From: an uncultured Gammaproteobacteria bacterium | GTDB lineage: Bacteria > Patescibacteriota > Microgenomatia > JAMCZE01 | Direction: 5' to 3' | NCBI GenBank assembly: GCA_964641255.1 | Contig: CAZXMM010000001.1 | Location: forward strand, 15,757 to 79,756 | DNA: 64,000 bases | In this document: one piece after another, positions 3,291-27,737 of the stretch | Position numbering within the stretch: the first letter of the stretch is position 1 | Layout of the letters: each line of letters opens with the position of its first letter | Position numbers and translations under genes: made by a program | Notes under the pieces: model-generated | Database searches by the model: none | Seen by the model: only the letters and a program-made list of their open reading frames with translations | Told to the model about the DNA's origin: nothing

Positions 3291-3358
3291 GGGGGTGTAG
3301 TTTACGCAAAATTTTCAGCGCAAGTTGAAAGACGAAGGTTCGATCCCTTCCACCTCCA
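3291..3358 (+). other. tRNA-like 3' fragment: acceptor stem plus canonical T-arm, no recognisable D or anticodon arm
   Basis: GGGGGTG...GAAGG-TTCGATC-CCTTC-CACCTCCA. The 7-bp acceptor helix (one G-U pair) and the T-loop TTCGATC are canonical, but the middle 34 nt fold into no cloverleaf. Confidence 0.25.
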
Positions 3359-3360
3359 CT

Positions 3361-6944: not shown

Positions 6945-7232
6945 ATGGCTGAATTTGACTCATGGGAGCAACAATTCGCAGACACCCTCGTCTATACCCA
7001 TACCCGAAGTGGTTCGGACGTACTAATTGACTATGAAGTCACACGTCAGTCCGTAAACCCCCCCTGCACTGGGGGTGAAAACTGCATAATAAATTTAGCA
7101 CTTAGGGCAGCTATGGCAATTGACCCAAAATTTGATGCGCAAGAGTTCAGTGCCGACAGTGCTAGGTGTCCAGCCTGTAGAATTCCGTGCCAAATCTGGG
7201 GCACACTCCGCATACAGGAGCCAGAAGAGTGA
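6945..7232 (+). CDS. hypothetical small Cys-rich protein
   Basis: 95-aa ORF in a 350-bp intergenic gap (MAEFDSWEQQ...). Contains CPACRIPC and nothing else recognisable. Confidence 0.25.
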   Translation: MAEFDSWEQQFADTLVYTHTRSGSDVLIDYEVTRQSVNPPCTGGENCIINLALRAAMAIDPKFDAQEFSADSARCPACRIPCQIWGTLRIQEPEE

Positions 7233-13600: not shown

Positions 13601-13865
13601 GTAAGTAGCATTATATCAACTGGTTGCAAACCGAGTCCAGATTCTAGATTGGCTCTAGGCTCTCACGATTAAATCCTCTCCCGTTTCGCTACGGGCGATT
13701 GACACTGAGCACAAAAAAAACTAAAATTGCTCATAGCAACGCGGGGTAGTGTAAAGTTGCATGTCAGGCTAGTAGAAGTGGGCCCTATGAGGAGTAATCT
13801 TCATAAGAAAATTTGGCTATATCGGTGGACAACCTCAATGTAAGTTGGGGTCAATACCGAGGGAA

Positions 13866-13885
13866 CCCAAGAAGACATTCTTGGG
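13866..13885. repeat. perfect inverted repeat CCCAAGAA-gaca-TTCTTGGG, candidate att/recombinase site
   Basis: 8-bp perfect arms with no adjacent U-run, about 70 bp from the serine recombinase stop. Confidence 0.45.
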
Positions 13886-13914
13886 ACTCCGTAGAGACTA
13901 AACGCCAAGCTCCC

Positions 13915-13929
13915 GCACTAAGTTAGTGC
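13915..13929. repeat. 15-bp perfect palindrome GCACTAAGTTAGTGC
   Basis: Seen directly, 24 bp downstream of the recombinase stop. Confidence 0.45.
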
Positions 13930-13952
13930 AGGATGATGATATAGTCCTACCC

Positions 13953-15725
13953 TTACAGTAATGTAAGAAGGTGCATAATCTGACGGTCCCAGTGCGATTC
14001 TGGGCCCCGCAACAAAGTAGGAACAGCCGAGACAAACTCGGCTGTTTTTGTTACATCGACGGTCTCCTCATTAGGTACAATCCTTTTCCCAATAATTGGA
14101 ACCTGCTTTTTCATCTCGACAATCTTTTCAAAGTAAAACGGACTGTCAAAATCAACTGTTTTATCTTGGAGGGTTAGGTGCAATCCACTTAACCCAATAA
14201 AGATATCGCGTTTGACTTTCGGATCAGTGGTTATGGCGAATGTCTTGCGAGCCTGGGCAGCAAAAGAAATAACTTTAACAGTTTCGTCATTGGCTTGGAT
14301 CATTCGCTCGTCAATGTTGCCGATTTGTTTTTCCACCACTTTAATTCCCGCTTCAAGTTCGAGCTTTCTTATTTTGAATTCCTCGTCACTTAACAAACTA
14401 CCATCAGTATTGGCTGGTGAGATCTTGAGAGCTACCAAGTTGTCTAGTCGCTTCCTAGAGTCATCGTAGGCTTTCTTAGTGGCATCGATAGTAGTCTCCC
14501 GAAACTGTTTCTCTTCCTCCTGCATTAAGCGAAGTTGGTCAATGGCCCATTCGAGAAAAAGGGGACTAAGCTCTATCTCTGCTAATCGCTGGTCAGTCTG
14601 CCGTTCCAATTCTTTGTCGCTGATGGAAAGCTCTTTGCAAAGTTTGCTTTTCTTGCGGCCACAACGGTTGTAAACGTAGTAGCGCATGGTCGGGTTAGTC
14701 ATGTCCTTAATGAAAGTGTCGCAGTGGGGACAATGATCTTGAACCTTTTTCGTGAGTTGAAATTTAGTCCGACAGTTAGTGCAGACTACTTGCCATTTTC
14801 CGTCTGTTACAACACCGGATGCACAAAAACCACACTTCATAGTGTGGGCATAGGTGTAGTTATGCTTGGTCTTGTACTGACTGACCTTCCCAAGTTTTAT
14901 TTGAACTTGCTCAAATACTTCAGGACTTATAGCCCGTTCAAGAGTAGGATTACTTTCAAACCAGTTGCCGCTTCCCACGGGATATTCAAACTTACCGCTA
15001 TAGAAAGGATTATTAAGAATCATATAAACTTCACTGAGGCAAAGTGGCCTTCCGCCAATCCTTTTCTTTTGTGGAGTAGTGAGGTGCCACTCTTCCTGGC
15101 TAAGCCGAAGGATTTCTGTTACCGGAGTGCCACTCAAAAAGAGCTCGAAGACTTTCTTTACAAACGGGAAGCGTTCCGGATCGAGGTATATCCGGCGTAG
15201 ACCACTCTCCGTGCCTTTGTCGTTAAGGTAACCTAGCGGCGCCCAGCCGGGCCGCCAGCCCTCTCGACATTTTTTCTCTAGTCCTCGTGAGACCACGATA
15301 CTCTTGTCATCACTATCCTTCTTAGAATTAGCAAACTCGACAGAAAGCATCCACTTGTCTTCCGGGGTATTTCGATAAATCCGGCTTGGTGTCCTGATTT
15401 CAATTAGCTTGCCCATATCCATAAGGTTAATGACGTCTCCTCCGTCTGACATGTTTCTTGCCAAGCGGTTGGCGTGCCAAGTGGCTATAGCATTAGCTTT
15501 ACCGGTGTCAATGAGGGAGAGCATTTCGCTAAATTTTTCTCTCTGTCGAGGTATGTGGGCAGATTTGCTTTCCTGAAGAATGTCGATTATTGTAAGTCCT
15601 TGTTTAGATTTTAAGCCCTCAAGAATAAAGAGTTGGTCCGGCAACGAAGCCGCCTGTCTTTCCTTATTATCTTCCGAGCTCTTTCGTGCGTAGCCAATAT
15701 ATTTTAGAGTAACTTGAGTGTCCAT
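13953..15725 (-). CDS. large serine recombinase (resolvase/invertase N-terminal domain, recombinase domain, zinc ribbon)
   Basis: YIGYARKSSEDN catalytic-Ser region, long recombinase domain, CGFC...CTNC...CPHC zinc ribbon, C-terminal coiled coil. ATG at 15725; the track ORF starts further upstream. Confidence 0.8.
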   Translation of the reverse strand: MDTQVTLKYIGYARKSSEDNKERQAASLPDQLFILEGLKSKQGLTIIDILQESKSAHIPRQREKFSEMLSLIDTGKANAIATWHANRLARNMSDGGDVINLMDMGKLIEIRTPSRIYRNTPEDKWMLSVEFANSKKDSDDKSIVVSRGLEKKCREGWRPGWAPLGYLNDKGTESGLRRIYLDPERFPFVKKVFELFLSGTPVTEILRLSQEEWHLTTPQKKRIGGRPLCLSEVYMILNNPFYSGKFEYPVGSGNWFESNPTLERAISPEVFEQVQIKLGKVSQYKTKHNYTYAHTMKCGFCASGVVTDGKWQVVCTNCRTKFQLTKKVQDHCPHCDTFIKDMTNPTMRYYVYNRCGRKKSKLCKELSISDKELERQTDQRLAEIELSPLFLEWAIDQLRLMQEEEKQFRETTIDATKKAYDDSRKRLDNLVALKISPANTDGSLLSDEEFKIRKLELEAGIKVVEKQIGNIDERMIQANDETVKVISFAAQARKTFAITTDPKVKRDIFIGLSGLHLTLQDKTVDFDSPFYFEKIVEMKKQVPIIGKRIVPNEETVDVTKTAEFVSAVPTLLRGPESHWDRQIMHLLTLL

Positions 15726-15843
15726 AATAATGCCCCCGCCGGTTGTAGTCAGAACGGTGAAGTCCTGTCCGACGAGGGCATTAAAAAACTCCACCGAAAG
15801 TTCTGACTACACTTTAATTATTTAGCTGTTCTTTATGATTGTC

Positions 15844-15996
15844 AAATTAAGATTTTTTACCATTACCATAGATTGCTTTAACAATCCAGATAAGCCTTCT
15901 TGAGTATTCGTGAGCTTCTTGTTCGGTCAATATGACTCCATATTCCTCGAAATACAGTTTCTTAAATTTCTCTATAGCTTGTTGAGACAATCGCAT
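15844..15996 (-). CDS. small hypothetical ORF (50 aa), not in the supplied track
   Basis: ATG lies 2 nt after the stop of the upstream gene. Translates MRLSQQAIEKFKKLYFEEYGVILTEQEAHEYSRRLIWIVKAIYGNGKKS. Confidence 0.25.
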
Positions 15997-15998
15997 GT

Positions 15999-16250
15999 CT
16001 AGCCCTCTTCCCTAAAAGCATCAAAAGCCAGCATTAAGTCTTCTTCGGTTTCATACCACCCATCGTTCCAGAAATCTGACATTTCTCCGTAGCTGTCTTC
16101 ATGCTTGCCATAGGAAATCCGCAGATAGACTTTTATTGGCCCATGTTGCCAATTTATCGTGCGTATAATTTTCAAAAAACGGCGCAAAGAACCTGTTCCG
16201 ACCCTAATGACCTCCACATCGTTTTTAATGATTTTTAGTATGTACTTCAT
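15999..16250 (-). CDS. hypothetical protein (83 aa)
   Basis: ORF overlaps the upstream gene by 4 nt, suggesting an operon. No family recognised. Confidence 0.4.
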   Translation of the reverse strand: MKYILKIIKNDVEVIRVGTGSLRRFLKIIRTINWQHGPIKVYLRISYGKHEDSYGEMSDFWNDGWYETEEDLMLAFDAFREEG

Positions 16251-16810
16251 GCCTTGTCGGTTGATTTACTACGATTTTTTCGTCTTCTTGGCTTTCGATG
16301 CCCGATTGCTGAAGTAAAATACTTCGCCGGATTTTCAAATGTTTTCCAACCTCCCGTAGAGCTTTTAAGCATTTCATTCAGAGTTCTATTAATTGCTCGG
16401 GGGTTGTGACGTTGGGCAATATATAACCAATGATTTGGCTTTTCGGGCCAAGGCCATTCCTTGAAGAGTTCACCTAACAGCGCGGCTACTTCCATAGGAG
16501 GGGTAAGGTAATTGCTATTTTTTAGTTTGCTGATAAGTGATAGCTTAGGCTCGGTAAACTCGAAGTTACCTTCTTGTTTACAAGTACCACTAACCAATCC
16601 ACTAACACTTCCATTCTCACTCTCAATCGCTGTGTTAATAGTTTCATAAGGTTTGCTCTTAACTGGGTGAGACTCGGCAATAGCCTCGCAAGCCAGAAGT
16701 TGATCTTCAATGGACAAGCCACAGTCGGGATCATAACGTGCCCCGTAGCTCTCGATTTTGCGGATCAATCTATTTTTGTAGGTATTCTCCCTATCCATAA
16801 GCAATAACAA
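16247..16810 (-). CDS. hypothetical protein with basic C-terminal tail (possibly DNA-binding)
   Basis: 187 aa ending GHRKPRRRKNRSKSTDKA. No family recognised. Confidence 0.4.
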   Translation of the reverse strand: MLLLMDRENTYKNRLIRKIESYGARYDPDCGLSIEDQLLACEAIAESHPVKSKPYETINTAIESENGSVSGLVSGTCKQEGNFEFTEPKLSLISKLKNSNYLTPPMEVAALLGELFKEWPWPEKPNHWLYIAQRHNPRAINRTLNEMLKSSTGGWKTFENPAKYFTSAIGHRKPRRRKNRSKSTDKA

Positions 16811-16856
16811 AAAACCTGCACCGTTGGGAGCCGATGCAGGTTTTGTCTCCCAACGA
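16809..16856. promoter_or_regulatory. two mutually exclusive 8-9-bp hairpins plus a U-run, immediately upstream of the 16810 start (attenuator-like or bidirectional terminator)
   Basis: AACCTGCA...TGCAGGTT with flanking A5/T5, and CGTTGGGAG...CTCCCAACG, sharing sequence. Seen directly. Confidence 0.4.
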
Positions 16857-17015
16857 TAGTTTTGGGATATCCTATCGAAGGAAGTAATTGGTAGGTACTA
16901 GATAATTGGGGTAAACCCCTTGGCTACATTTGCACTGTGCGAATTGTGCTCAGAGATCCTTTGTTAAATTCCAGGAATATCTTTCCATTATCTAGATGCG
17001 GGGACGACGTCCTTA

Positions 17016-17216
17016 TTGATATTATTTGCCAGTCTAGTACTAATCTCCATGACTATTCCACTCTTATCAGCACGAGAATACCGTTTGAAATATGGAATTA
17101 GAAAAAGTACTTTTTATGACAGAGTGAGGAAAAACAAAATTGTGGCTTTCAAAGTCTCGCCGAGAAAACTTTGGTTGTTGCCCCTGTCGTATCGCATTAG
17201 CAGCATAAGTTATTAG
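17016..17216 (+). CDS. excisionase/AlpA-like HTH (HTH_17) small DNA-binding protein
   Basis: LLSAREYRLKYGIRKSTFYDRVRKNKIVAFKVSPRKLWLL aligns with the Xis/AlpA pattern (L-s-e-a-l-gv-sr-T-y-w---G-lp--kig-r-w). The start codon is uncertain. Confidence 0.4.
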   Translation: MILFASLVLISMTIPLLSAREYRLKYGIRKSTFYDRVRKNKIVAFKVSPRKLWLLPLSYRISSISY

Positions 17217-17288
17217 GCCCGATCATGTCTGGACGTCAACTAATCTTTGGATGCCCTCCCCGCCTTGCGGTTGCTCCCGGTACCGGCT

Positions 17289-17501
17289 CTACCTAAAAAG
17301 TTCGCTTACGGAGATTCTTAATGCTTTAGCCAAACTAGATATTTTCTCAAGGGAGGGATTACGCTCGCCCCGTTCGATTGCACCCATGTAGCTTCTCTCA
17401 ATACCAGCAATATGAGCGAGTGCCTCTTGGCTTGGTCCCATCTGCTTTCTTAGTTTTCTGATATTTTCGCCGAAGTTTTTCTGGACTTTCGTATTGGCCA
17501 T
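17289..17501 (-). CDS. XRE-family (Cro/CI-like) HTH transcriptional regulator
   Basis: IRKLRKQMGPSQEALAHIAGIERSYMGAIERGERNPSLEKISSLAKAL is a canonical HTH_3 domain. ATG at 17501; the track ORF begins at a TTG at 17510. Confidence 0.75.
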   Translation of the reverse strand: MANTKVQKNFGENIRKLRKQMGPSQEALAHIAGIERSYMGAIERGERNPSLEKISSLAKALRISVSELFR

Positions 17502-17540
17502 ATTGACCAATTGTCGACACCAGTGCTACTATGAGTCCAC

Positions 17541-17566
17541 GTGATATATCACTCAGTAATGAGTGA
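17541..17566. promoter_or_regulatory. composite palindromic operator candidate between the XRE gene and the divergent operon
   Basis: GTGATATATCAC (12-bp perfect palindrome) overlapping TCACTCA-gtaa-TGAGTGA (7-bp arms). Confidence 0.45.
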
Positions 17567-17604
17567 TTAGCTCGTAACAGGGCTATCTTAGATGGAGATG
17601 TAAT

Positions 17605-17859
17605 ATGAAGAGGTATCTCACCGAAAGTGAGACCAACAAAGACCCGCTTCTTAGAACCCTTGCAAATGTGGAGCCGGTGGTGGGATGGATTGTCTACATC
17701 GGGATTGGTATTTATTTCATCCTCACTTGGAATTTCTATGTCACCGCCGTCACTTTCCTCATCTATACGTTTATCATTTCTCCTCTGCTTGTTGAATTTG
17801 TTTTAGACCGTTTGATGATGGCAATCTACTACTTAATTAGGGGGATGCCAAAAATATAA
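17605..17859 (+). CDS. hypothetical 2-TM membrane protein
   Basis: 84 aa. GGAG Shine-Dalgarno sits 8 nt upstream. The stop overlaps the next start (TAATG). Confidence 0.45.
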   Translation: MKRYLTESETNKDPLLRTLANVEPVVGWIVYIGIGIYFILTWNFYVTAVTFLIYTFIISPLLVEFVLDRLMMAIYYLIRGMPKI

Positions 17860-18479
17860 TGTTTGGCTTTTTTAAATCACCTAAAGACAGCTTTTATGAA
17901 CAATTGAAACGAGCGACGTATGAAGCCGCCATACTGGTCGACAAAAAGGATATAACAGGTAAAGAAAAAAACGTTTTGTACAGTATTATCGCAACCGGAG
18001 GATTATTCCCGACTATTTACTCACAGCCTCTCGATCTTGGTGATGGCAAATTATTAATAAGTGACGCAGATTTTGAATGTACGAGAGACAAAAAGCCCGG
18101 TGCTCTTTTACCAATTTTTTGTGTTTATTGCCTCTTTAACCTAATTGAAGTATCGAAAAACGATAAAGTCTTTGGGGCAAGATTTAACAAAATATTGCCG
18201 GGAGTGAAGACTGTCCTCTCCGAAGTAACGGATCTTGAACCAAAAGGTATTGACACTCTATTAGATCAACTCGAAGAGCGGGAAGGTGAGGATGGCATCG
18301 GGGCCGTTTATCCTCTCATGTACGCCCAGCCATTAGAGCTTATTTTTGGGTCTGACAGAGCAAAATCAATTCTCTTGGAATTATCTAAAAATCCTCTAGG
18401 TTCAACAGGCATTTCCTTGGCAATTCCATCAATGTTCATCGATTTCATCAAGGGTGTAAAGACGGAGCTTGCCGAATAG
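17859..18479 (+). CDS. hypothetical protein (206 aa)
   Basis: Translationally coupled to the upstream ORF. No family recognised. Confidence 0.45.
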   Translation: MFGFFKSPKDSFYEQLKRATYEAAILVDKKDITGKEKNVLYSIIATGGLFPTIYSQPLDLGDGKLLISDADFECTRDKKPGALLPIFCVYCLFNLIEVSKNDKVFGARFNKILPGVKTVLSEVTDLEPKGIDTLLDQLEEREGEDGIGAVYPLMYAQPLELIFGSDRAKSILLELSKNPLGSTGISLAIPSMFIDFIKGVKTELAE

Positions 18480-18574
18480 TTAGTCATGGTCATTCTCTGT
18501 CCAGCTTCGCAGCACTGCTTGTCCCAATAGCCATCCCCCCCCAACTCCCTAAATCTAGTTATAATAATCTCTCT

Positions 18575-19351
18575 ATGAAGTTGGGCGAACTAATCGAAAA
18601 AGTTACAATTCCATCAAAGCCGGTTAGAGTAATTATTCCTGTAAACGGTAAGCACAAGGCACTATTCTTTCTGGGAACAACAGCAGACGGGAGTCTTATG
18701 GTGGATCCTTCAATTGGATGCAGTTTCGATAATTGGCGGTATAGTTTTTGTACCGTTCCCAGGGGAAAAGTGCAAAATATAAGCGTCCCACTAGATCAAA
18801 AATCGATGATAGAATCCGGGAAAATTGGACCTAAAATTACTTATCATAAGAGTGGCTTTGTAAAGGTAGGTAAAACCAAGCTGTTGGAACCAGTTAGTAT
18901 TTGGGCAACCCCCCTGGATATTGCGTTTGGGCACCTGTTTACATATCAGGCTAAGGGTTTCCAGGGATTCAATTCTGTTACTACGCCCAATCCCAAATAC
19001 TCCGACATAATGCCAATAATACCAGCAGGATTAAAAACGCTAAAAATAGTTGCTCATGCGGGGAAATTGGAACACCTTATACCAACAATGGATCAAGTAA
19101 ATATATCGACACTTAGCAGACCAAATAGGATCTTTGAGAAGGACAATGGTAACTTGACAGAGATATCACTTTTCAAAATTAGCATAGCTTCGAGAGATAT
19201 CTGGATAAAATTAACGTATATTCCAAATTTTATCCTGACCCAGAACCCACAACCTAGCATAAATAGTTTGATTGGCTGGGATCAAGATAAAGCCGACGAT
19301 CTCAGAAAACCACTTAAGTTCGTAGCAATAGCAGCGGGGGGCGACTGGTAA
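18575..19351 (+). CDS. hypothetical protein (258 aa)
   Basis: TATAAT box upstream. Followed by conserved 3' motif copy 1. Confidence 0.45.
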   Translation: MKLGELIEKVTIPSKPVRVIIPVNGKHKALFFLGTTADGSLMVDPSIGCSFDNWRYSFCTVPRGKVQNISVPLDQKSMIESGKIGPKITYHKSGFVKVGKTKLLEPVSIWATPLDIAFGHLFTYQAKGFQGFNSVTTPNPKYSDIMPIIPAGLKTLKIVAHAGKLEHLIPTMDQVNISTLSRPNRIFEKDNGNLTEISLFKISIASRDIWIKLTYIPNFILTQNPQPSINSLIGWDQDKADDLRKPLKFVAIAAGGDW

Positions 19352-19388
19352 TTAATTCCCAAAACTAGATATTGGTATTTCGAGGAAC

Positions 19389-19430
19389 AAATTCCTGATT
19401 TCTTCCATTCCCCGCAACACAAAAATACTT
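19389..19430 (+). repeat. conserved 3'-cassette motif copy 1 (AAATTCCTGATTTCTTCCATTCCCCGCAACAC + A-run)
   Basis: One of four related copies, each 0-40 nt after a stop codon. Confidence 0.6.
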
Positions 19431-19438
19431 GGAGCATA

Positions 19439-19467
19439 AAGACGGTCCGTCTTCGTTTCTTCTTCTT
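19439..19467 (+). terminator. intrinsic terminator (GACGG-tc-CGTC plus T-rich tract)
   Basis: Hairpin followed by TTCGTTTCTTCTTCTT. A TGnTACAAT -10-like box follows at 19470-19478. Confidence 0.45.
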
Positions 19468-19484
19468 AATGCTACAATAGTAAC

Positions 19485-20141
19485 GTGCATACAAGAAAAG
19501 GGAATAGCTTAACTGTTATTCTGTTGGCAATTGCCATATCTTCAGTGGGAATAGTAAGCTACTTTTACTGGAAATCAGAAAATGTCCCCCCCGTCATTCA
19601 AATTCAAGAAAAAATAGTAAATCAAGACAACCCTTCGCAGAATAAATTATCAGAAAACTGGAAATTTCATTTTGACAACCGTCTTGCTTTCCAAGTTAAG
19701 ATTCCTCAAGATGCAGAAACTCAAGTTGTGCCCGCTGGCTTTGACAATGAGATGGGATTTGGTCCCGAGGGAATTTCCAGAATGGAATTCTCCAACAAAG
19801 ACTTTCTAATAAAGGTAGAACCCTCCACAAACAGGAGAAACGACCAAACTTTACAACAACTTGGTGAAACAAGAGAATTTAATGGCCTACCAGGTACTTC
19901 TCACCCAAGTCCTTGTTCAAAAGGTGCAGAGAAAGAAGAAATCCAGTTGCGCAGTGGAACTAAAGCATTTCTATGTGATAGCGTTCTTCCAAGCGGGCGA
20001 AAGTTTGGTATGGCCGCCACGATTTTAGGCAAAAAGTATTTTTACAACATAACAACAGGTAGTATTTATTCTCCAAACTTCACTGATAAAGAACAGGAAA
20101 TTTTTATGGAATTTCTTAACACCTTTCAGCCCACTGATTAG
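19485..20141 (+). CDS. hypothetical signal-anchored secreted protein (218 aa)
   Basis: GTG start at 19485. N-terminal TM helix LTVILLAIAISSVGIVSYFYW. Followed by motif copy 2. Confidence 0.45.
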   Translation: MHTRKGNSLTVILLAIAISSVGIVSYFYWKSENVPPVIQIQEKIVNQDNPSQNKLSENWKFHFDNRLAFQVKIPQDAETQVVPAGFDNEMGFGPEGISRMEFSNKDFLIKVEPSTNRRNDQTLQQLGETREFNGLPGTSHPSPCSKGAEKEEIQLRSGTKAFLCDSVLPSGRKFGMAATILGKKYFYNITTGSIYSPNFTDKEQEIFMEFLNTFQPTD

Positions 20142-20158
20142 TATGAGAGTTTTAGAAA

Positions 20159-20193
20159 CCAATTTCTGATTTCTTCCACTCCCCGCAACAAGG
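20159..20193 (+). repeat. conserved 3'-cassette motif copy 2 (CCAATTTCTGATTTCTTCCACTCCCCGCAACAAGG)
   Basis: Differs from copy 1 by a few substitutions. Confidence 0.6.
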
Positions 20194-20201
20194 AAATTCA
20201 A

Positions 20202-20229
20202 GCCGTATCAACGGCCTGTTTTATTTTTT
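20202..20229 (+). terminator. intrinsic terminator (GCCGT-atca-ACGGC plus TTTTATTTTTT)
   Basis: Hairpin and U-run seen directly. Confidence 0.55.
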
Positions 20230-20251
20230 CTGCCATGATACTATTATTTAC

Positions 20252-20497
20252 ATGAGTCTCTTTAAGAAAATCCTCCGTGTCATTACCATAGTGGTAGTAG
20301 CGTTTCTGCTAATAGGAGTTGCTTATTGGGGATTTAAAAGTGTTTTAGCAAGAGTTGCCCCAGAAAATAGCTTGGTTGATTGTCACTATTTTGATAATGA
20401 CTATGATGCGTGTAGTAAGCGACCAGACTGTTTACCAATCACAATTGGGGGAATTGGTAGCAGCCCAGCAGTTCATAGTTGTCAAACAAAGAAATAA
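20252..20497 (+). CDS. hypothetical small signal-anchored Cys-rich protein (81 aa)
   Basis: N-terminal TM helix. Four Cys in the C-terminal 35 aa (CHYFDNDYDACSKRPDC...HSC). Confidence 0.4.
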   Translation: MSLFKKILRVITIVVVAFLLIGVAYWGFKSVLARVAPENSLVDCHYFDNDYDACSKRPDCLPITIGGIGSSPAVHSCQTKK

Positions 20498-20537
20498 TTT
20501 CTGATTTCTTTCACTTTTCGCAACCAAAAAATCAGGA
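20494..20537 (+). repeat. conserved 3'-cassette motif copy 3 (AATAATTTCTGATTTCTTTCACTTTTCGCAACCAAAAAATCAGG)
   Basis: Overlaps the stop codon. CTGATTT...AAATCAG forms a 7-bp stem around the conserved loop. Confidence 0.6.
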
Positions 20538-20653
20538 GCGTGTAAACAGTCCGTTCGGTTATCCAAGATTATTGCTTCACATTTGTTTATTTCTAAACAA
20601 ACCTCGGACCAAACATTTGATACAATTGTGTTAGATAGTCTTGCGCTAAATAC

Positions 20654-21007
20654 ATGAGAAATAAAAAACTTGCAATCACTACCATAATAGTGGGAGGAAT
20701 AGAAGGTTTACTTGCGCTCTTCCTTTCCTCTTCTTTCCTACCAAAAATCATGCAAGTATACGAAGATTTTGGTGTGAATATCCCAATAACTACCAGCCTT
20801 ACCCCCTATATTTTTATATCCCCCGCCTTATTAAGCCTGATTGTGGGGACCTTAATTTTGACTTCCAAAAACAATAGCAAACGCTACAATTCCTGGGCAA
20901 TAATAATCCTGATAGCAACTCTAATTTTTATTTTTCTGGGTTTGCCCCTACTCTTCTCTGTAGGGTTCCTTTTTCCCATGTTCAACTTAGTAAACGTCAT
21001 AGAATAA
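20654..21007 (+). CDS. hypothetical 3-4-TM membrane protein (117 aa)
   Basis: TGaTACAAT box about 30 nt upstream. Followed by motif copy 4. Confidence 0.4.
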   Translation: MRNKKLAITTIIVGGIEGLLALFLSSSFLPKIMQVYEDFGVNIPITTSLTPYIFISPALLSLIVGTLILTSKNNSKRYNSWAIIILIATLIFIFLGLPLLFSVGFLFPMFNLVNVIE

Positions 21008-21045
21008 GTTCCCAAAGCATGAGAAATTCACTGCGAAAATCTACA

Positions 21046-21090
21046 ATAATTTCTGATTTTTTCTATTCCCGCAACCAAAAAAAAGGGGGG
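21046..21090 (+). repeat. conserved 3'-cassette motif copy 4 (AATAATTTCTGATTTTTTCTATTCCCGCAACCAAAAAAAAGGGGGG)
   Basis: Preceded by ATGAGAAAT at 21019-21028, a 10-mer also found at 20653-20662 around the 20654 start. May mark a truncated cassette. Confidence 0.55.
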
Positions 21091-21098
21091 CGACTTCT

Positions 21099-22721
21099 CT
21101 ATTCACACACTAAGTTTTTAGCATCAGCCTCTCCCAGATAAGCCATTATCTTGCCGTCACTTTGTAACACAGTATCAGTCACTTTAAGGCAGGGATACTT
21201 TTCGTCAACATCCCAAACATAAAGAGTTCCCACTTGGAGCTGACGCTCATCGATGTGGTCGAATCGGTAGGTCTCAAGAAGGTTGCCTCCAAAAGCATGA
21301 GCTCCATTCCGGGTTCCTCCTGAGGCCAAATATTTTTCCGGAGAATAGGCCGTATAAAAAAGTGTGTAAATGAGTGGTTCGTTAAGTCCCGGAGACACAA
21401 CCACAAAAGAATAGTTAGTCTTTTCTTGCTCCATTTTTTGCACTAGCTCTTTCATCCCGCTCCCCCAGATTTTGACTGCCGTAGTCGGTCCATGGAAAAA
21501 ATAGTTGTGGATGTACCAAAAACAACTAAGAACTAGTATCCCCCAAATAAGTACCCCTCCCCACTGTCTATAGCGCCAAGACTGTTGACACCACGAAAGG
21601 CACACCAAAACTCCGTAGCCGGCAAAGACTACTAAAGGAAAAGCCGCTAACAGAATGCGGCGATCAAAAACCGGTAGCGCGGTTAGGGCTCCAGGGATTA
21701 GGGCTACTACTAACCAGCCAAAAAGAAGCAAAAACTCTCTCTTTTGTCGACTCAAAGCAACTCCCCCGATGATGATCAGTGGGGCCATCCATAGATACAG
21801 CAATCTAACTTGGGGAATTTGATTATAAATACTTTGGCCAAAAAGGATGTCTGGACTTGATATTTTTAAAAATCCATTAATTACCGACTCGGCGGTAACA
21901 ATGCGCCGGTTGTGGAGTAGCCCTTGCAACAGATCGCCATTTTGTCGATCAAACTGCAGGGTAGCTAGTCCACTAAGCGCCGCCTGTTGATCAAAAAAAA
22001 TACTGACAGTGTAGGGTCGAGACGCCGCTTCATTTGTCCAAAGAGTTGAGAGTAAAAAGGGTAACGTACACACTGCCAATAAGCAGCTACTGATACTTAG
22101 GTGTTTCCAAAAAGCGAAACGCCAGACAAAAATGGTAAGAATGAGCCAGATGATTGGTACCCAAACTTTACTGGAATGGTAAGTGTAGAAATCCACTCCA
22201 AAAACGCCGGCCGCCAGAATAAAAAACAAGGGCTTTTTCCTCCCTAGTAAAAATAGCCAGACACCAAGAAGTGATAAGGAATAGGCCAGTCCAATTTCAA
22301 TTCCCACCCGAGAGTATTGCACTAGCCAAGGTAGAGCAGCCGTTAAAAAACCCACCAGCAGGGCCAGGCGTTTTCGTCTAAATAGTTCAAAACAAATACC
22401 TACACTTAAACCGATCGCAAGGACTCCAGCTAAAAGTGAAGGCAGTCTAACTGCCCACTCAGAAAGTCCCGCGACATAAACGAAAGGAATAAGGAGATAA
22501 ACGTAGATTGGATTTTTATAATCATCAAAAGAACGAAAGGCTAAGGGATAGGCTTGCCCAAACTCATCGCGACCGGTTTTTAAGAGCGAGTAAGCGTTGT
22601 AGCCTAGGGCCGCTTCGTCGGCACTGATACTGTTGGGTATCTTGGCTAAATTGTAGAGCCGCAGCAGTAAACCCAAAAAAAGAATCAATGAAAAAATTAT
22701 GGCGATAAGTCGATATTTCAT
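21099..22721 (-). CDS. GT39/ArnT-like membrane glycosyltransferase (GT-C fold)
   Basis: 540 aa and polytopic. First loop ADEAALGYNAYSLLKTGRDEFG is typical of the PMT/ArnT family. Confidence 0.75.
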   Translation of the reverse strand: MKYRLIAIIFSLILFLGLLLRLYNLAKIPNSISADEAALGYNAYSLLKTGRDEFGQAYPLAFRSFDDYKNPIYVYLLIPFVYVAGLSEWAVRLPSLLAGVLAIGLSVGICFELFRRKRLALLVGFLTAALPWLVQYSRVGIEIGLAYSLSLLGVWLFLLGRKKPLFFILAAGVFGVDFYTYHSSKVWVPIIWLILTIFVWRFAFWKHLSISSCLLAVCTLPFLLSTLWTNEAASRPYTVSIFFDQQAALSGLATLQFDRQNGDLLQGLLHNRRIVTAESVINGFLKISSPDILFGQSIYNQIPQVRLLYLWMAPLIIIGGVALSRQKREFLLLFGWLVVALIPGALTALPVFDRRILLAAFPLVVFAGYGVLVCLSWCQQSWRYRQWGGVLIWGILVLSCFWYIHNYFFHGPTTAVKIWGSGMKELVQKMEQEKTNYSFVVVSPGLNEPLIYTLFYTAYSPEKYLASGGTRNGAHAFGGNLLETYRFDHIDERQLQVGTLYVWDVDEKYPCLKVTDTVLQSDGKIMAYLGEADAKNLVCE

Positions 22722-22790: not shown

Positions 22791-22863
22791 GCCAGGGTAG
22801 CTCAGTGGTAGATGCGTGCGCTTCATAAGCGCAAGGTCGAGGGTCCGATCCCCTCCCCTGGTA
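22791..22863 (+). tRNA. tRNA-Met (anticodon CAU), somewhat degenerate
   Basis: Acceptor GCCAGGG/CCCTGGT with G1-U72 and A73. Anticodon stem TGCGC/GCGCA, loop TTCATAA. T-stem GAGGG/CCCTC. However, the D-stem has only 2 Watson-Crick pairs and the T-loop reads TCCGATC (C at position 55). Upstream promoter TTTGCTACAAT. Confidence 0.55.
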
Positions 22864-23205
22864 CTAAAAGAAAAGGTCTCGCCATTTTTGCCAGTTGGGC
22901 ACCATTGGTGGTGATACTTCCAAAGGAGGCAGCAAGAGCTCGTCAGGAACGATAATTATTTTTTCCCCTGCCCGAGCCAGCCCCAGTTCGTTTCTAGCTA
23001 CTAACTCCACGTAAGCCTCTGACCCTACCTGTTCCTTGCGTTTTATTAGTTCCTGCTGTTGTTTTTGGAGATTTGCCAACCGCTTCTGGCGCTCGATTAA
23101 TTTGTCCCCCGCGCTCCAAAAATCACCAAACGCCCGCACCGTAGTAAAGATCAGGTAAAACCCGATAACTATTACTACGATTCGTAAAATTCGGGACCGA
23201 TTCAT
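22864..23205 (-). CDS. FtsB/DivIC-like septum formation initiator
   Basis: 113 aa. N-terminal TM then a coiled coil (LANLQKQQQELIKRKEQ) and an ELVARNELGLARAGE motif, as in the FtsB/DivIC family. Confidence 0.55.
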   Translation of the reverse strand: MNRSRILRIVVIVIGFYLIFTTVRAFGDFWSAGDKLIERQKRLANLQKQQQELIKRKEQVGSEAYVELVARNELGLARAGEKIIIVPDELLLPPLEVSPPMVPNWQKWRDLFF

Positions 23206-23267: not shown

Positions 23268-24113
23268 ATGGACGATAGTCTTACTCAGTTTGTAGATTAC
23301 CTCAAATCCGCGAAAAAAGCTTCTGCCACCATTATCGCGTATAAAAAGGATATCGACCAGCTTCTCGACTTTGTCAAAAAGCAAGGGCGTAGTACGATTG
23401 GTTCCGTAACCACTGAGGATTTAAATAGCTTTCTAGGGGTACTTCAGGCACAAAATTATACCCCCAAGTCGGTATCTCGCAAGATCAATTCGATTAAGAC
23501 CTTTTACCGTTTTCTTAGCCAAAACAAGCTCATTACTAACAACGTCGCCGCAGCTATTAACCACCCGAAGTTTGACACCAAGGCTCCGCGGATTCTCTCG
23601 CGGCTCGAATACCGCGCCCTGCGTGATGCCTCCCGAGACGATAGTCGCATCGCGGCCATCATCGAGCTCCTACTGCAAACTGGAATGCGAATTGGGGAAT
23701 TAGCAGCCCTGCGAGTAGGCTCGATTGGTGATCACTTTTTAAAGATCCCGCCAGTTGAGGGTCACGCCGAACGTGACGTTCCTCTCAACAAATCCGCCAA
23801 ACTGGCCCTAGATCGCTACCTCGCCTTACGACCCAACGTCGACTCTAACGCTCTCTTTATCACTAAAACCGGCCGCCCATTGTTAATTAGAAACATTCGC
23901 ACTGCTATCGACCGCTACTTTAAACTAGCGGGCATTGCCGGAGCTAAGGTCAACGATCTTAGGCACACCTTTATTGCCCACCACCTGGCGGCAGGCACCT
24001 CCCCAGTGCTCATTAGTAAGTTGGTTGGACACAAAAGAATCAGTACTACTGAAAAATATCTTGAGTTTATCAAGGACCTCCCCACGGAAAAAATGAAGCT
24101 GGAAGAGCTTTAA
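23268..24113 (+). CDS. tyrosine site-specific recombinase, XerC/XerD family
   Basis: SAM-like N-terminal domain. Catalytic R (GMRIGEL), HxxR (LRHTF) and GHKRISTTEKY (His/Tyr). Confidence 0.75.
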   Translation: MDDSLTQFVDYLKSAKKASATIIAYKKDIDQLLDFVKKQGRSTIGSVTTEDLNSFLGVLQAQNYTPKSVSRKINSIKTFYRFLSQNKLITNNVAAAINHPKFDTKAPRILSRLEYRALRDASRDDSRIAAIIELLLQTGMRIGELAALRVGSIGDHFLKIPPVEGHAERDVPLNKSAKLALDRYLALRPNVDSNALFITKTGRPLLIRNIRTAIDRYFKLAGIAGAKVNDLRHTFIAHHLAAGTSPVLISKLVGHKRISTTEKYLEFIKDLPTEKMKLEEL

Positions 24114-25279: not shown

Positions 25280-25351
25280 AGGATCCGTCGTTCAACGGTT
25301 AGGACATGACTCTTATAAAGTCATTACAATGGTTCGACTCCATTCGGATCC
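25280..25351 (+). tRNA. tRNA-Ile (anticodon UAU)
   Basis: Clean cloverleaf: acceptor GGATCCG/CGGATCC plus A73, D-stem GTTC/GGAC, anticodon stem TGACT/AGTCA, loop CTTATAA (T34 A35 T36), T-arm AATGG-TTCGACT-CCATT. Extended -10 promoter TTGCTATAAT about 10 nt upstream. Confidence 0.7.
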
Positions 25352-25364
25352 ACTAGATTTGGGG

Positions 25365-27737
25365 CTAGAAAAGGTGGGACCGAGAGGCGATTTCTGCTTC
25401 CACCTCGCGGATGTCTCGAGCGTATTTGAGAGAAGACAACTCCTTAATCATCTCGGCCACCTTGGGGTTTCTCCCCTGATTGATTTTTTCAAAATCGTGA
25501 TTAATTTCTACACTAAAGACTGGTACCGGCTCGTTTTTAACGAGCGTTTTCATATAACCGTTGTAAGCTTCGACTTTCAGCAGGTCGGATTCGCTAAAGG
25601 TGGGAGAATATTCGTGGGCTAAGAACTGGGCGTCAGCTACCCCGACCCGAAAGGCAATCTTGGTGCCTACGTTACCAAAAATGGCATTTTTGACGTCCTC
25701 TTCGACCTGGGAAATGAACTGATTGGCTACTGTCAGAGCCAGTCCGTACTTGCGAGCCTCGGAGAGGATCACGGCGAAATCAGGAGTGGCAAAATTTTGA
25801 AACTCATCAACATACAGATAGAAAGGTATGCGTTCGGCTTCCGGGATGTCTTGCCGAGAGATAGCTGAGGCTAAAATTTTAGGTACCAACAGGTTGCCAA
25901 TAAAATTACTATTTTCTTCTCCAATTAACCCCTTGGCTAAATTGACAATAATGATCTTGCGCTCATCCATGGCCTTGCGGAAGTCAAAAGCGCTCTTTGA
26001 CTGACCAATAATATTGCGGATCATTTTATTGACCACGAAGCGGCTAAATTTGGAGACGATATAATCTAGGGTCTCAGACTTATGGAACTCAGTAGTAGAG
26101 GCAATTTGCTCGGTCCAAAACCGCTTTACCATCTGGTCACTCACTCTGGGGAGAAGTTCCTGCAGAAATGGCCCACCGGGATCTTGTAGTACGCGCATTA
26201 CTTCAATTAGAGTGCCCTCGGGCATTGCCTCCATGACCGTCAACATGGCATTGCGCACCGAATGTTCGAGACGGGGACCCACAATTCCGGTTTGGTGCGG
26301 GTCGTAGAGCTTATAAAGTAGACCGATAAAGCCCGAGACCACCATGTGACGCTGCATATCACTGTGAGCTTCCATGATATTCCAACCCATTGGTCGGTTT
26401 AAATTTGAGGGATCAAAATAGATTACATCCTCGGCCCGCTCGGGGGGAATCTGTTCCAGAATCTTTTCAAACGTATCGTGAGGATCAATGAAGCACACCC
26501 CTTTACCCTCCCGAATATCTTGCAGGATCATTTGGGACATAAGAAGCGACTTTCCAGTACCAGTGGCACCGATAATATACACGTGGCGCAACCGGTCGGG
26601 ATCAAGCAAATGGACTTCCCGCTCTTGACCCCGAAAAACAGACTTACCCACGAGTAACCCGCCATGATCAGGAACCTGTTGGGGAGCGGGCGCCCGTTTA
26701 GCATTGAGCCAAAAAATACCCGGGGTTTCAATTGATTTATTAGGAAAATGACAAATGGTGGCTAACTCCTCAGCCGATAAAATACTAGGGGTAGCAAATA
26801 ATGGTTGGTAGCGGTAAATAAAGTCGGTCATAAAGTTGTGGGCAATACGGATTTTGTCGCCCGAAAAACCGTTTTGATCCGAAGAAAATTGGGAGAATGA
26901 ACCCTTGAGATTATCTAGTATAGATTTGGCTTGAGCTTTATCGGCGGCACTGACTACAATCCGAATCGAGGTAGAAAAACCCACTTTACTCACTTTATTC
27001 TCAATCGCCTCTAATGTCTTGGCGTCCACGTTAAACTTGGCCTTTTCCGGATCGGCCTCGTTTTTCTTGGTTTTACTAATATACTTTCTTCCCTGACTGC
27101 GCCACTCATTGGGGGCCGGAGCGACAATAAACTGTACCACCGCTCCCTCTCCTTCACTCAGCTTGGCAAGACTGGAAGTGATCTGGGAAAGCGGATCCAC
27201 CGCTAAATCACGAAAGTTCTTAATTGGCATATAATTGGCGGCTTTAAGCTTCAAACTAGCGAAGGCGACCTCTCCTTTTTCCGAAAAAATTGAATGATCT
27301 TCGACTTCCAAAATAGCGGCGCCGTTAAAAGTGGAGTGAATTTGCTTTTCGATCAGATCGCGTTGTTTCTGGGGGACGGACACATAAAACCTGATGTCTC
27401 CGGGCCGACCCACTATCTCAAAAGAGATATGATCCTGAATTCGTAAAAAATCAAAATCAAACCAGCTCGACTTACCACGATAAATCGAATAAAGTGAGGA
27501 AAAAAATTGCTCCATGGCGTCGATCTTGACTTCATTGTCTCTGGGCACCGCTACCTGAAGCAGGACATAATCTAGGGCGTGTTCCTCCCGATTGCGCCAC
27601 TTATAAAACTGGAGGAATAGGTAACCTAACAAGCCCAAGGACACAACCACCAAAGTAATCGTCAGCAGTCCAATAGCTACAATGGCTGTCAGTTCTGGAA
27701 GTTGTAATAAAAAGACGTCAAGGGCAGCGAGATCCAT
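25365..27737 (-). CDS. VirB4/TraC/ConE-like (AAA_10/DUF87-type) membrane-associated P-loop ATPase
   Basis: 790 aa. N-terminal TM helices, Walker A IIGATGTGKS at about residue 395 followed by CFIDPHD, and Walker B YLYVDEFQNF. The architecture matches VirB4-type conjugation/T4SS ATPases. A HerA/FtsK-like ATPase is the alternative. Confidence 0.5.
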   Translation of the reverse strand: MDLAALDVFLLQLPELTAIVAIGLLTITLVVVSLGLLGYLFLQFYKWRNREEHALDYVLLQVAVPRDNEVKIDAMEQFFSSLYSIYRGKSSWFDFDFLRIQDHISFEIVGRPGDIRFYVSVPQKQRDLIEKQIHSTFNGAAILEVEDHSIFSEKGEVAFASLKLKAANYMPIKNFRDLAVDPLSQITSSLAKLSEGEGAVVQFIVAPAPNEWRSQGRKYISKTKKNEADPEKAKFNVDAKTLEAIENKVSKVGFSTSIRIVVSAADKAQAKSILDNLKGSFSQFSSDQNGFSGDKIRIAHNFMTDFIYRYQPLFATPSILSAEELATICHFPNKSIETPGIFWLNAKRAPAPQQVPDHGGLLVGKSVFRGQEREVHLLDPDRLRHVYIIGATGTGKSLLMSQMILQDIREGKGVCFIDPHDTFEKILEQIPPERAEDVIYFDPSNLNRPMGWNIMEAHSDMQRHMVVSGFIGLLYKLYDPHQTGIVGPRLEHSVRNAMLTVMEAMPEGTLIEVMRVLQDPGGPFLQELLPRVSDQMVKRFWTEQIASTTEFHKSETLDYIVSKFSRFVVNKMIRNIIGQSKSAFDFRKAMDERKIIIVNLAKGLIGEENSNFIGNLLVPKILASAISRQDIPEAERIPFYLYVDEFQNFATPDFAVILSEARKYGLALTVANQFISQVEEDVKNAIFGNVGTKIAFRVGVADAQFLAHEYSPTFSESDLLKVEAYNGYMKTLVKNEPVPVFSVEINHDFEKINQGRNPKVAEMIKELSSLKYARDIREVEAEIASRSHLF

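Follow-up and report, generated by a model that had tools for sequence, protein, structure and literature searches.

The 64,000-nt stretch of DNA examined here (the window; contig CAZXMM010000001.1, positions 15,757–79,756, of assembly GCA_964641255.1) comes from a Microgenomates-like member of the Patescibacteria; its closest protein relatives are named Patescibacteria, Gottesmanbacteria, Levybacteria, and Daviesbacteria. We conclude, with a probability of roughly 78%, that the 3′ end of an initiator-type tRNA-Met gene (tRNA-fMet) carries a composite integrative island at positions 14005–21075, and that the island consists of one 5.4-kb element with a large serine recombinase (LSR) and three single-gene cassettes, each closed by a conserved arm followed by a short core. 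An earlier note on this DNA, made from the sequence alone, had proposed an integrative island built around the recombinase. Attachment (att)-like junctions, base composition, and presence/absence polymorphism in relatives bear this out, and of the three options in the note, a novel cargo element comes closest. Its right boundary was nearly exact (21095 against 21075), but its left boundary, 13866, should be 14005.

Attachment sites and the recombinase at tRNA-fMet

The target gene, the recombinase, and the sites and cassettes of the island are as follows.

13740–14013, + strand: tRNA-Met(CAU), the target gene; ARAGORN with introns allowed reports tRNA-Met (cat), intron (32,203)
13740–13770, + strand: exon 1 of tRNA-Met(CAU)
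13771–13973, + strand: group I intron of 203 nt inside tRNA-Met(CAU)
13866–13885 and 13915–13929, + strand: palindromes CCCAAGAAGACATTCTTGGG and GCACTAAGTTAGTGC, hairpins of P6-like and P8-like type in the group I intron
13974–14013, + strand: exon 2 of tRNA-Met(CAU)
13953–15794, − strand: LSR, a 613-aa open reading frame (ORF) with Resolvase PF00239 and Recombinase PF07508 (Pfam)
14005–14046, + strand: attL-like tRNA-proximal junction; core CCCCGCAAC at 14005–14013, then the element-side arm AAAGTAGGAAC, then a hairpin
19382–19418, + strand: R1, arm and core at the distal end of the 5.4-kb element; core CCCCGCAAC at 19410–19418; nhmmer 38.2 bits
19419–20189, + strand: cassette 1, 771 bp; J218 (19485–20141), then R2
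20153–20189, + strand: R2; perfect core at 20181–20189; nhmmer 39.6 bits
20190–20524, + strand: cassette 2, 335 bp; K81 (20252–20497), then R3
20488–20524, + strand: R3; degenerate core TTTCGCAAC; nhmmer 23.5 bits
20525–21075, + strand: cassette 3, 551 bp; L117 (20654–21007), then R4
21040–21075, + strand: R4, the outer boundary of the composite island; core TCCCGCAAC; nhmmer 16.0 bits, E 0.008

The core CCCCGCAAC is 9 bp long and constitutes the last 9 nt of the tRNA gene. A shared core of this length is longer than is typical for serine integrases. The core is repeated, exactly or in degenerate form, at 19410, 20181, 20516, and 21067, always after a conserved arm of about 28 nt, which follows the pattern AGGAAAT-N-GGTTCTGATTTCTT-N5 in the window. 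The island is thereby resolved into four units of 5.4 kb (14005–19418), 771 bp, 335 bp, and 551 bp. A repeat search gave the same picture of a four-copy direct repeat, with one copy behind each of the last four genes (19390, 20161, 20496, and 21048). Within the 64 kb, the arm and core have four matches and no further copies, against 0.10 expected by chance, and the scores of the sites drop with distance from the tRNA (from R1 to R4, as listed). The junctions share their core with the target, the recombinase gene lies beside one of them, and the same layout is found in five other lineages, as in integrative elements. An integrase gene beside its att site is the classic arrangement.

The six genes that follow the XRE-type repressor gene in the island had been regarded as one block. 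In fact, they are a three-gene operon inside the LSR element and three separately bounded single-gene cassettes. The att sites themselves had been sought at two inverted repeats (13866–13885 and 13915–13929), while the four-copy repeat and the target gene were missed. The inverted repeats are indeed perfect, but a structure-annotated cmscan alignment assigns them to helices of the group I intron, and the true junctions are the cores CCCCGCAAC at the tRNA-fMet 3′ end. Nor do they lie in spacer DNA downstream of the recombinase stop codon; the LSR ORF overlaps the 3′ exon of the tRNA and the end of the intron on the opposite strand.

The group I intron model RF00028 (Rfam) matched at 13761–13968 on the + strand with 77.4 bits (gathering score, 50), and removal of the intron in silico gives back a cloverleaf with the anticodon CAU (ARAGORN). 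The intron breaks the anticodon loop after U33. The hallmarks of bacterial initiator tRNAs are a C1×A72 mismatch and three G-C pairs in the anticodon stem. The acceptor stem, CGCGGGG/CCCCGCA, leads to a C1×A72 mismatch as read from the sequence, and CCA is not encoded; the anticodon stem, TCAGG/TCTGA, does not have three consecutive G-C pairs. A strong promoter-like site is present at the gene (13699–13727; scan score, 11/12). Group I introns are already known from the tRNA genes of Patescibacteria, and the intron in the window is an instance of that phenomenon; the word "recombinase" does not occur in the report that describes them (PMC13011429).

The island has a GC content of 0.414, while equal-sized windows of the flanks have a mean of 0.458 (standard deviation, 0.009; minimum, 0.438), and the three outermost genes are lower still (0.378). 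The tetranucleotide distance of the island is about 3 standard deviations above the flank mean. The lower GC content noticed previously was thus correct, the tetranucleotide profile deviates as well, and the island is therefore real and compositionally distinct.

LSR has the architecture of a serine integrase, with matches to PF00239 (1e-13, residues 33–177), PF07508 (5e-7), and the PHROG "integrase" (2e-42). The true start is likely to be the ATG at 15725, which gives 590 aa; the size of 590–613 aa is inside the range of about 450–700 aa expected for LSRs. Cys-X2-Cys pairs are located at residues ~320–360, with a weak HypA zinc-finger match (Pfam), and some homologues carry PF13408. Among solved relatives, the SPbeta SprA/YokA recombinase is the closest (E 7.5e-10), and the serine in the YARKSS motif of LSR aligns with the RRS serine of SprA. 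We infer that LSR is the catalyst of recombination at these sites.

The LSR gene spans the junction. Its final 20 codons are the att core, the tRNA 3′ exon, and the end of the intron in antisense, and the sequence ...IPTLLRG is encoded by the element-side arm and the core. The tail in the integrated state, antisense to the tRNA and intron, is PESHWDRQIMHLLTLL; 0–16 residues follow ...LRG across the window and three relatives (L002, L004, and L006; related loci are given L numbers), with 16 in the window. In a reconstructed excised state, the ORF reads on through the arm as xEEIRxxFL..., a peptide that is similar in four elements, and the tail is predicted to be ...LLRGMEEIRNLFLEIPISSFGN. By these reconstructions, integration really does exchange the tail. 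At arm positions such as TTCTGATTTC, none of the three codon positions varies, and conservation is equal in units that have no LSR; therefore, DNA recognition is the primary constraint on the arm. At least 73 of 120 LSR homologues end in ...LRG, the antisense of the core, which in most is followed by a tRNA-antisense tail. Therefore, the LSR family as a whole sits at tRNA-fMet.

Within the antisense of the C-terminal coding region of LSR, a hairpin with a 10-bp stem (14022–14046) is followed by a T-run and would be a terminator for the tRNA. A GC-rich hairpin is observed ~10 nt past the core at nearly every unit start (14022–14046, 19439–19453, and 20202–20215 in the window), so that the unit next to the tRNA, whichever it is, would supply the terminator.

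Related loci, empty sites, and cassette reassortment

LSR has numerous homologues at 46–74% identity, all of them named from Patescibacteria-type sources. In the genomic context of five relatives, the 3′ end of the LSR gene overlaps tRNA-fMet in all five. In the window and in L002, L004, L006, L056, L069, L078, and L129 (46–67% identity), the gene both abuts and overlaps the 3′ end of tRNA-fMet. An alignment of four loci showed that sequence conservation runs beyond the tRNA end into the element-side arm. At the far end of the 5.9–8.7-kb islands of five relatives, the same motif is found in the tRNA orientation; the arm and core are located at the distal island end, in this orientation, in every LSR locus with enough sequence. 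The consensus of the site in these relatives is AG(A/G)AAATAGGTTCTGATTTCTT-N5-CCCCGCAAC. Only LSR, the small protein B49, the XRE repressor, and, in L002, D187 are common to the elements, and the cargo between the ends is unrelated. Past the distal site, the sequence of L129 and L006 (..TTCGAC..GCTCAG..) matches the sequence that follows the tRNA in the empty loci L044, L012, and L062, as should be the case for an outermost junction. A more distant homologue, in L130 (41% identity), has no tRNA nearby; therefore, the tRNA-fMet-specific LSR clade is bounded.

Occupancy was surveyed by a metagenome scan with a verified tRNA 3′-exon pattern, which gave 120 loci, and the counts refer to the 71 unique loci with at least 1.5 kb of downstream sequence. 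Among these unbiased loci, 54 have neither sites nor LSR, 14 have arm and core sites without LSR, and 3 have LSR. A site profile, searched equally against the upstream sequence and the opposite strand, detected 46 sites; the search covered 829 kb from 121 loci, and all sites (46/46) were on the tRNA strand and downstream of the tRNA. Recombinase-less units are 312–2375 bp long, LSR units are 5.4–8.7 kb long, and the median over all 46 units is ~880 bp.

A direct comparison of an empty and an occupied site was possible for L105 and L039. Identity between the two loci is 98.6% through the tRNA and 95% over 2.65 kb of downstream sequence, which in L039 comes after an insert of 3316 bp with three units; both ends of the insert are exactly at CCCCGCAAC(A). 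This is a recent gain or loss at >95% flank identity. The comparison with an empty site suggested in the earlier note thus places the junction at the core, although a strain-level empty site for the exact organism was not found. With this pair and the 54 empty loci among 71, the related genomes do not carry one identical block in one context, and indel polymorphism is evident. The cassettes are also reassorted, since unit 2 of L039 corresponds to unit 1 of L112 (92%), and unit 3 of L039 corresponds to unit 1 of L115 (94%).

The possibility that recombinase-less units are LSR elements with internal deletions was rejected as a general rule; the arm of the LSR 3′-end type opens only 3 of 42 recombinase-less units. 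We also considered a dependence of integration on the intron. The tRNAs of L002, L004, and L006 have an intron at the identical position, and many related loci are intronless. In the sample, LSR occurs only with intron-bearing tRNAs (7/35 against 0/40 intronless; Fisher p 0.003), although these loci are not independent in their phylogeny. Occupancy as a whole shows no association with the intron (p 0.41), and the target in L129 is intronless; a requirement for the intron was therefore rejected.

Two further features of these loci were observed. A recurrent sequence, (T/C)GAGG(G/A)CAT(T/C)AAAGAAAA, occurs with a small GIY-YIG-like gene after the tRNA or a site in many loci, among them L121, L122, L123, L040, L073, and L085. 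It is duplicated around a 546-bp unit in L085 (+0 and +546), and it may be an ancestral flank or a very common cassette. In L004 (compared as L004/L005), the DivIC-XerC-DUF8128 block is on the tRNA side of the junction and not beyond the island as in the window, L002, and L006, which suggests a chromosomal inversion with an endpoint at the tRNA-fMet locus.

Proposed mechanism and competing explanations

In the proposed mechanism, LSR would join the site of a circular element (arm, core, and element-side arm) with a chromosomal site formed by the T-arm and acceptor end of the tRNA. The crossover would take place inside the 9–10-bp core, CCCCGCAACA. The tRNA would be kept intact, with a terminator hairpin in the new 3′ trailer that the element brings. 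The core would outlast integration together with the half-site on the tRNA side, so that more units could be added; their entry, and with it the order of insertion, may proceed from the tRNA side or through the distal site of the LSR unit, and both routes predict outward decay of the sites. For excision, any arm and core site would pair with the tRNA-side junction, and cassettes that have no recombinase may be mobilized in trans. The predicted outcome is tandem arrays, reassorted cassettes, and recombinase-less arrays left once the LSR unit excises. Exactly the kind of array seen in the 14 loci would remain if this unit were excised between its own distal site and the tRNA junction.

Several observations weigh against this reading. 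Most arrays have no recombinase in cis (14 loci against 3). Canonical LSRs are not known to use attL or attR as partners of attP; therefore, growth of the arrays needs relaxed site use of the kind found in the staphylococcal cassette chromosome (SCC). A reconstructed attP has no convincing dyad center (best complementarity, 0.40; L129 was left out of the conclusions on dyad symmetry). An excised circle or free arm-core-arm site was not found, and a scan of 2.9 million viral contigs with the arm and core pattern gave 0 matches. The sole arm-core-arm junction recovered sits in a tandem pair and has a different core. It was observed on the reverse strand of L131 (JGI Ga0438325_0014302), at 767–932, at the 3′ end of an LSR gene, and is repeated 6196 bp further on (6963–7128); the repeat of 166 bp is 97% identical, the core reads GTCGGCACA in place of CCCCGCAAC, and a tRNA is not in view. 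This contig appears to carry a tandem pair of LSR units. Internal junctions of the type predicted are thereby shown to exist, albeit with a variant core. The divergence of LSR also roughly follows that of the host proteins (identities to relatives of 67, 56, and 53% for LSR, and 78/75, 54/57, and 61/51% for XerC, FtsH, and DUF8128), so that long residence fits the data as well as frequent transfer does. Finally, a XerC-like gene (Phage_integrase, 2e-25) lies ~0.5–10 kb from tRNA-fMet in most loci with enough flank, recombinase-less arrays included.

The similar identities of LSR and the host proteins would also be explained if the locus were hypervariable and vertically inherited, with LSR as a long-resident and possibly domesticated gene, the repeats as relics, and no present mobility here. 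The lack of a recovered excised form and the degenerate cores of R3 and R4 agree with this explanation. However, LSR is present at only 3 of the 71 sampled loci, the gain or loss at L039/L105 is recent, and, in the window, the LSR ORF and the cores of attL, R1, and R2 are intact. Vertical inheritance without mobility is therefore improbable.

The neighboring XerC-like tyrosine recombinase (23268–24113) is the main rival catalyst. It might insert the cassettes, and perhaps the whole island, with LSR being cargo or having another role, and the island would then be likened to Xer-dependent integrative elements, pdif modules, or the integron. Besides the proximity of its gene to tRNA-fMet, an imperfect inverted repeat in the conserved arm (AGGAAAT-N8-ATTTCTT) is consistent with this explanation. 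However, XerC, DivIC, and tRNA-fMet are also neighbors in the 54 empty loci; therefore, the synteny is ancestral. The XerC gene is found on either side of the tRNA at variable distances, while the LSR elements use the same arm and core sites and the LSR gene always spans the junction, an arrangement that insertion by XerC would leave unexplained. Single-strand folding of the attC type was not seen in seven site strands (five sites, two on both strands), with z values between 0.25 and −1.0 and one at −2.35. We consider insertion by XerC quite improbable.

A degraded prophage, as the remnant of the lysogeny module of a Patescibacteria phage, or a helper-packaged satellite is very improbable: the integrase, the XRE repressor, the divergent operator-like region, and the small ORFs would fit, and a weak Terminase_2-like match of a 104-aa protein in L002 is the one hint of the satellite raised in the earlier note, but no capsid, portal, tail, terminase, primase, or packaging match was obtained for the island proteins in Pfam and PHROGs (the earlier note had likewise seen no structural phage genes) and no virion genes are on record for the related elements, the compact 5.4–8.7-kb design in at least five lineages argues against random decay, LSR has no match above 28% identity in the phage and plasmid collections (50,697 phage records searched), and the arm and core pattern is absent from the viral contigs mentioned above.

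A wider view of integration by LSR at this locus is tentative. The tRNA-fMet 3′ end of Microgenomates might serve as a platform dedicated to gene capture, analogous to the integron but based on a serine recombinase, in which LSR would insert, excise, and reshuffle in trans cassettes of 0.3–2.4 kb with sites of ~37 nt. Taken jointly with this platform, and just as doubtfully, the tail swap of LSR on integration could be a built-in switch of directionality or activity.

Cargo, neighboring genes, and relation to known systems

The remaining genes of the 5.4-kb element are listed below.

15847–15996, − strand: B49, small protein of 49 aa; homologues directly upstream of LSR in L002, L004, L006, and L056
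15999–16250, − strand: C83, 83 aa; 46% identical to an ORF in L056
16247–16810, − strand: D187, 187 aa; 10 uncharacterised homologues and one in the L002 element
17016/17049–17216, + strand: E66, a possible helix-turn-helix (HTH) protein; HTH_17 E 0.076, under the Pfam cut-off
17289–17510, − strand: XRE-family repressor; HTH_3 4.7e-14; 39–47% identity in L002 and L006
17541–17566, no strand: candidate operator in the divergent XRE/G84 intergenic region; two overlapping perfect palindromes
17605–19351, + strand: cargo operon of G84 (membrane), H206, and I258; no Pfam, PHROG, or PADLOC matches

LSR, the three small ORFs upstream of it (49, 83, and 187 aa), and the XRE repressor are all present as previously described (ORFs and Pfam). 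The homologues of B49 are 47–58% identical (tblastn), and B49 may be a regulator or directionality factor; in L004 and L006, a different small ORF of this module has a weak Omega_Repress match. A helical model of D187 (predicted local distance difference test score, pLDDT, 75) gave no match in the PDB. The label of E66 as an Xis/AlpA-like HTH protein is weakly supported by its sub-threshold match. The divergent palindromic operator was confirmed, with perfect palindromes GTGATATATCAC at 17541–17552 and TCACTCA-GTAA-TGAGTGA at 17549–17566; a promoter-like site is located nearby (17503–17532).

Six ORFs after the XRE gene, running to 21007, have no family assignment (G84, H206, I258, J218, K81, and L117). 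They had been described as all membrane, secreted, or Cys-rich. From reading of the translations, this holds for four of the six, which have hydrophobic or signal-like segments, but H206 and I258 look soluble. The nine island proteins other than the recombinase and the XRE repressor had no matches in Pfam, PHROGs, or PADLOC. For I258 (18575–19351), a search of 1.8 billion representatives gave only 12 remote relatives, and the residues D38, P62, P86, K87, H91, G94, H120, and F122 are invariant in the family. The structure check proposed for the cargo yielded a confident all-beta model of I258 (pLDDT 88), but no counterpart of its fold was found in the PDB, and profile matches were lacking for the cargo as a whole. 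The cassettes of other arrays encode toxin-antitoxin-like pairs, Fic-like and GIY-YIG-like proteins, and an IS30-like transposase, according to a reading of the translations only. The cargo of related LSR elements has defense-type domains (PycTM; SLFN_AlbA_2 and HATPase_c_4; precomputed Pfam marks) in L129 (6159–6695), L004 (6765–8363), and L130 (6179–7630).

Beyond the island, a 540-aa multi-pass membrane protein with no Pfam match is encoded at 21099–22721, between the island and the tRNA-Met/DivIC genes; relatives of it were not found in a scan of genome contigs. It is missing at this position in L002 and L006, where the islands adjoin the DivIC side directly, and its gene may be a further insertion that has no recognizable site. 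A second tRNA-Met(CAU), with a G1-U72 pair, is located at 22791–22864, and a tRNA-Ile with the anticodon UAU, which is unusual in bacteria, is located at 25281–25353. A tRNA-like gene at 3291–3359 scores 40.9 bits in Rfam; its "anticodon" in ARAGORN has two bases, so that this tRNA is aberrant or unusual. A 790-aa DUF8128/TraG-D_C-like ATPase is encoded at 25365–27737. Its homologues (55–66% identity) are found near XerC and DivIC in many related loci, and it looks like a conserved host gene rather than a part of a conjugative element.

By analogy with known systems, the island would work most like SCC, while its outcome resembles tycheposons and integron arrays. In SCC, an LSR integrates at the 3′ end of a conserved housekeeping gene that stays functional, and the att sites have a common 8-bp core with three half-sites that are element-derived and alike and one that is host-derived (bioRxiv 10.64898/2026.03.31.715619). 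Composite tandem islands and recombinase-less, att-bounded elements are described for SCC and the enterococcal cassette chromosomes (bioRxiv 10.64898/2026.03.31.715619; PMC6222049; 10.1101/336396). The island likewise has an LSR, a 3′-end target kept intact, a short conserved core, a unique host half-site, and tandem and recombinase-less units. The target of SCC is rlmH, whereas that of the island is an RNA gene, tRNA-fMet, in a Patescibacteria host; neither Ccr recombinases nor integration at rlmH was found, and the island is not a member of SCC. The recombinase in the window is single and only remotely related, with ~21% identity in the best matches to staphylococcal plasmid recombinases. 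SCC units are tens of kilobases long, in contrast to the cassettes of 0.3–2.4 kb and autonomous units of 5–9 kb in the present family, and, unlike in SCC, the LSR ORF itself spans the att core.

Tycheposons of Prochlorococcus are cargo elements at tRNA genes, in which older units are displaced outwards by each new integration, with remnants of partial sites left behind; tyrosine recombinases are found in 910 of 937, and LSRs are in the minority (bioRxiv 10.1101/2020.12.28.424599). They are flanked by partial tRNAs of ~40 nt, and many have replication genes. In contrast, the island has only 9 bp in common with the tRNA, its arm is element-specific, and replication genes were not detected.

The integron enzyme, IntI, is a tyrosine recombinase that acts on folded single-stranded attC sites, and insertion takes place at attI next to intI. 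The arrays resemble those of integrons in their mostly single-gene units, each followed by a site, in reassortment, in the many arrays without a recombinase in cis, and in toxin-antitoxin-like and orphan cargo, as judged by eye from the translations. They differ in the serine recombinase, the non-folding sites, and the anchor at a tRNA 3′ end. An IntI beside attI was not found; the adjacent enzyme is of the serine type, and the nearby tyrosine recombinase has ordinary Xer/phage-integrase domains and no fixed position relative to the arrays. Prophages with serine integrases (SPbeta SprA, phiC31, Bxb1, and A118) have the same recombinase architecture, site specificity, and an integrase gene beside att, but phage genes are absent from the island (Pfam and PHROGs), and the tandem arrays imply a relaxed choice of partner.

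A description of this LSR-element family at the tRNA-fMet of Microgenomates was not found in the literature searched. Patescibacteria have tiny genomes and very few characterized mobile elements. If the proposed reading is true, the family would provide a defined mechanism of gene gain and loss for Patescibacteria that can be searched for by sequence (the 9-bp core, the 28-nt arm, and the recombinase clade). It would extend SCC-type island building to an RNA-gene target and to single-gene units of integron size, with a serine recombinase that allows units to accumulate in tandem at the 3′ end of an essential gene. Such a serine integrase, whose site in a universally conserved tRNA is compact, conserved, and naturally multi-use, could be of interest for genome engineering, and the ORF of LSR that spans the att site leads to a directly testable hypothesis on the control of directionality.

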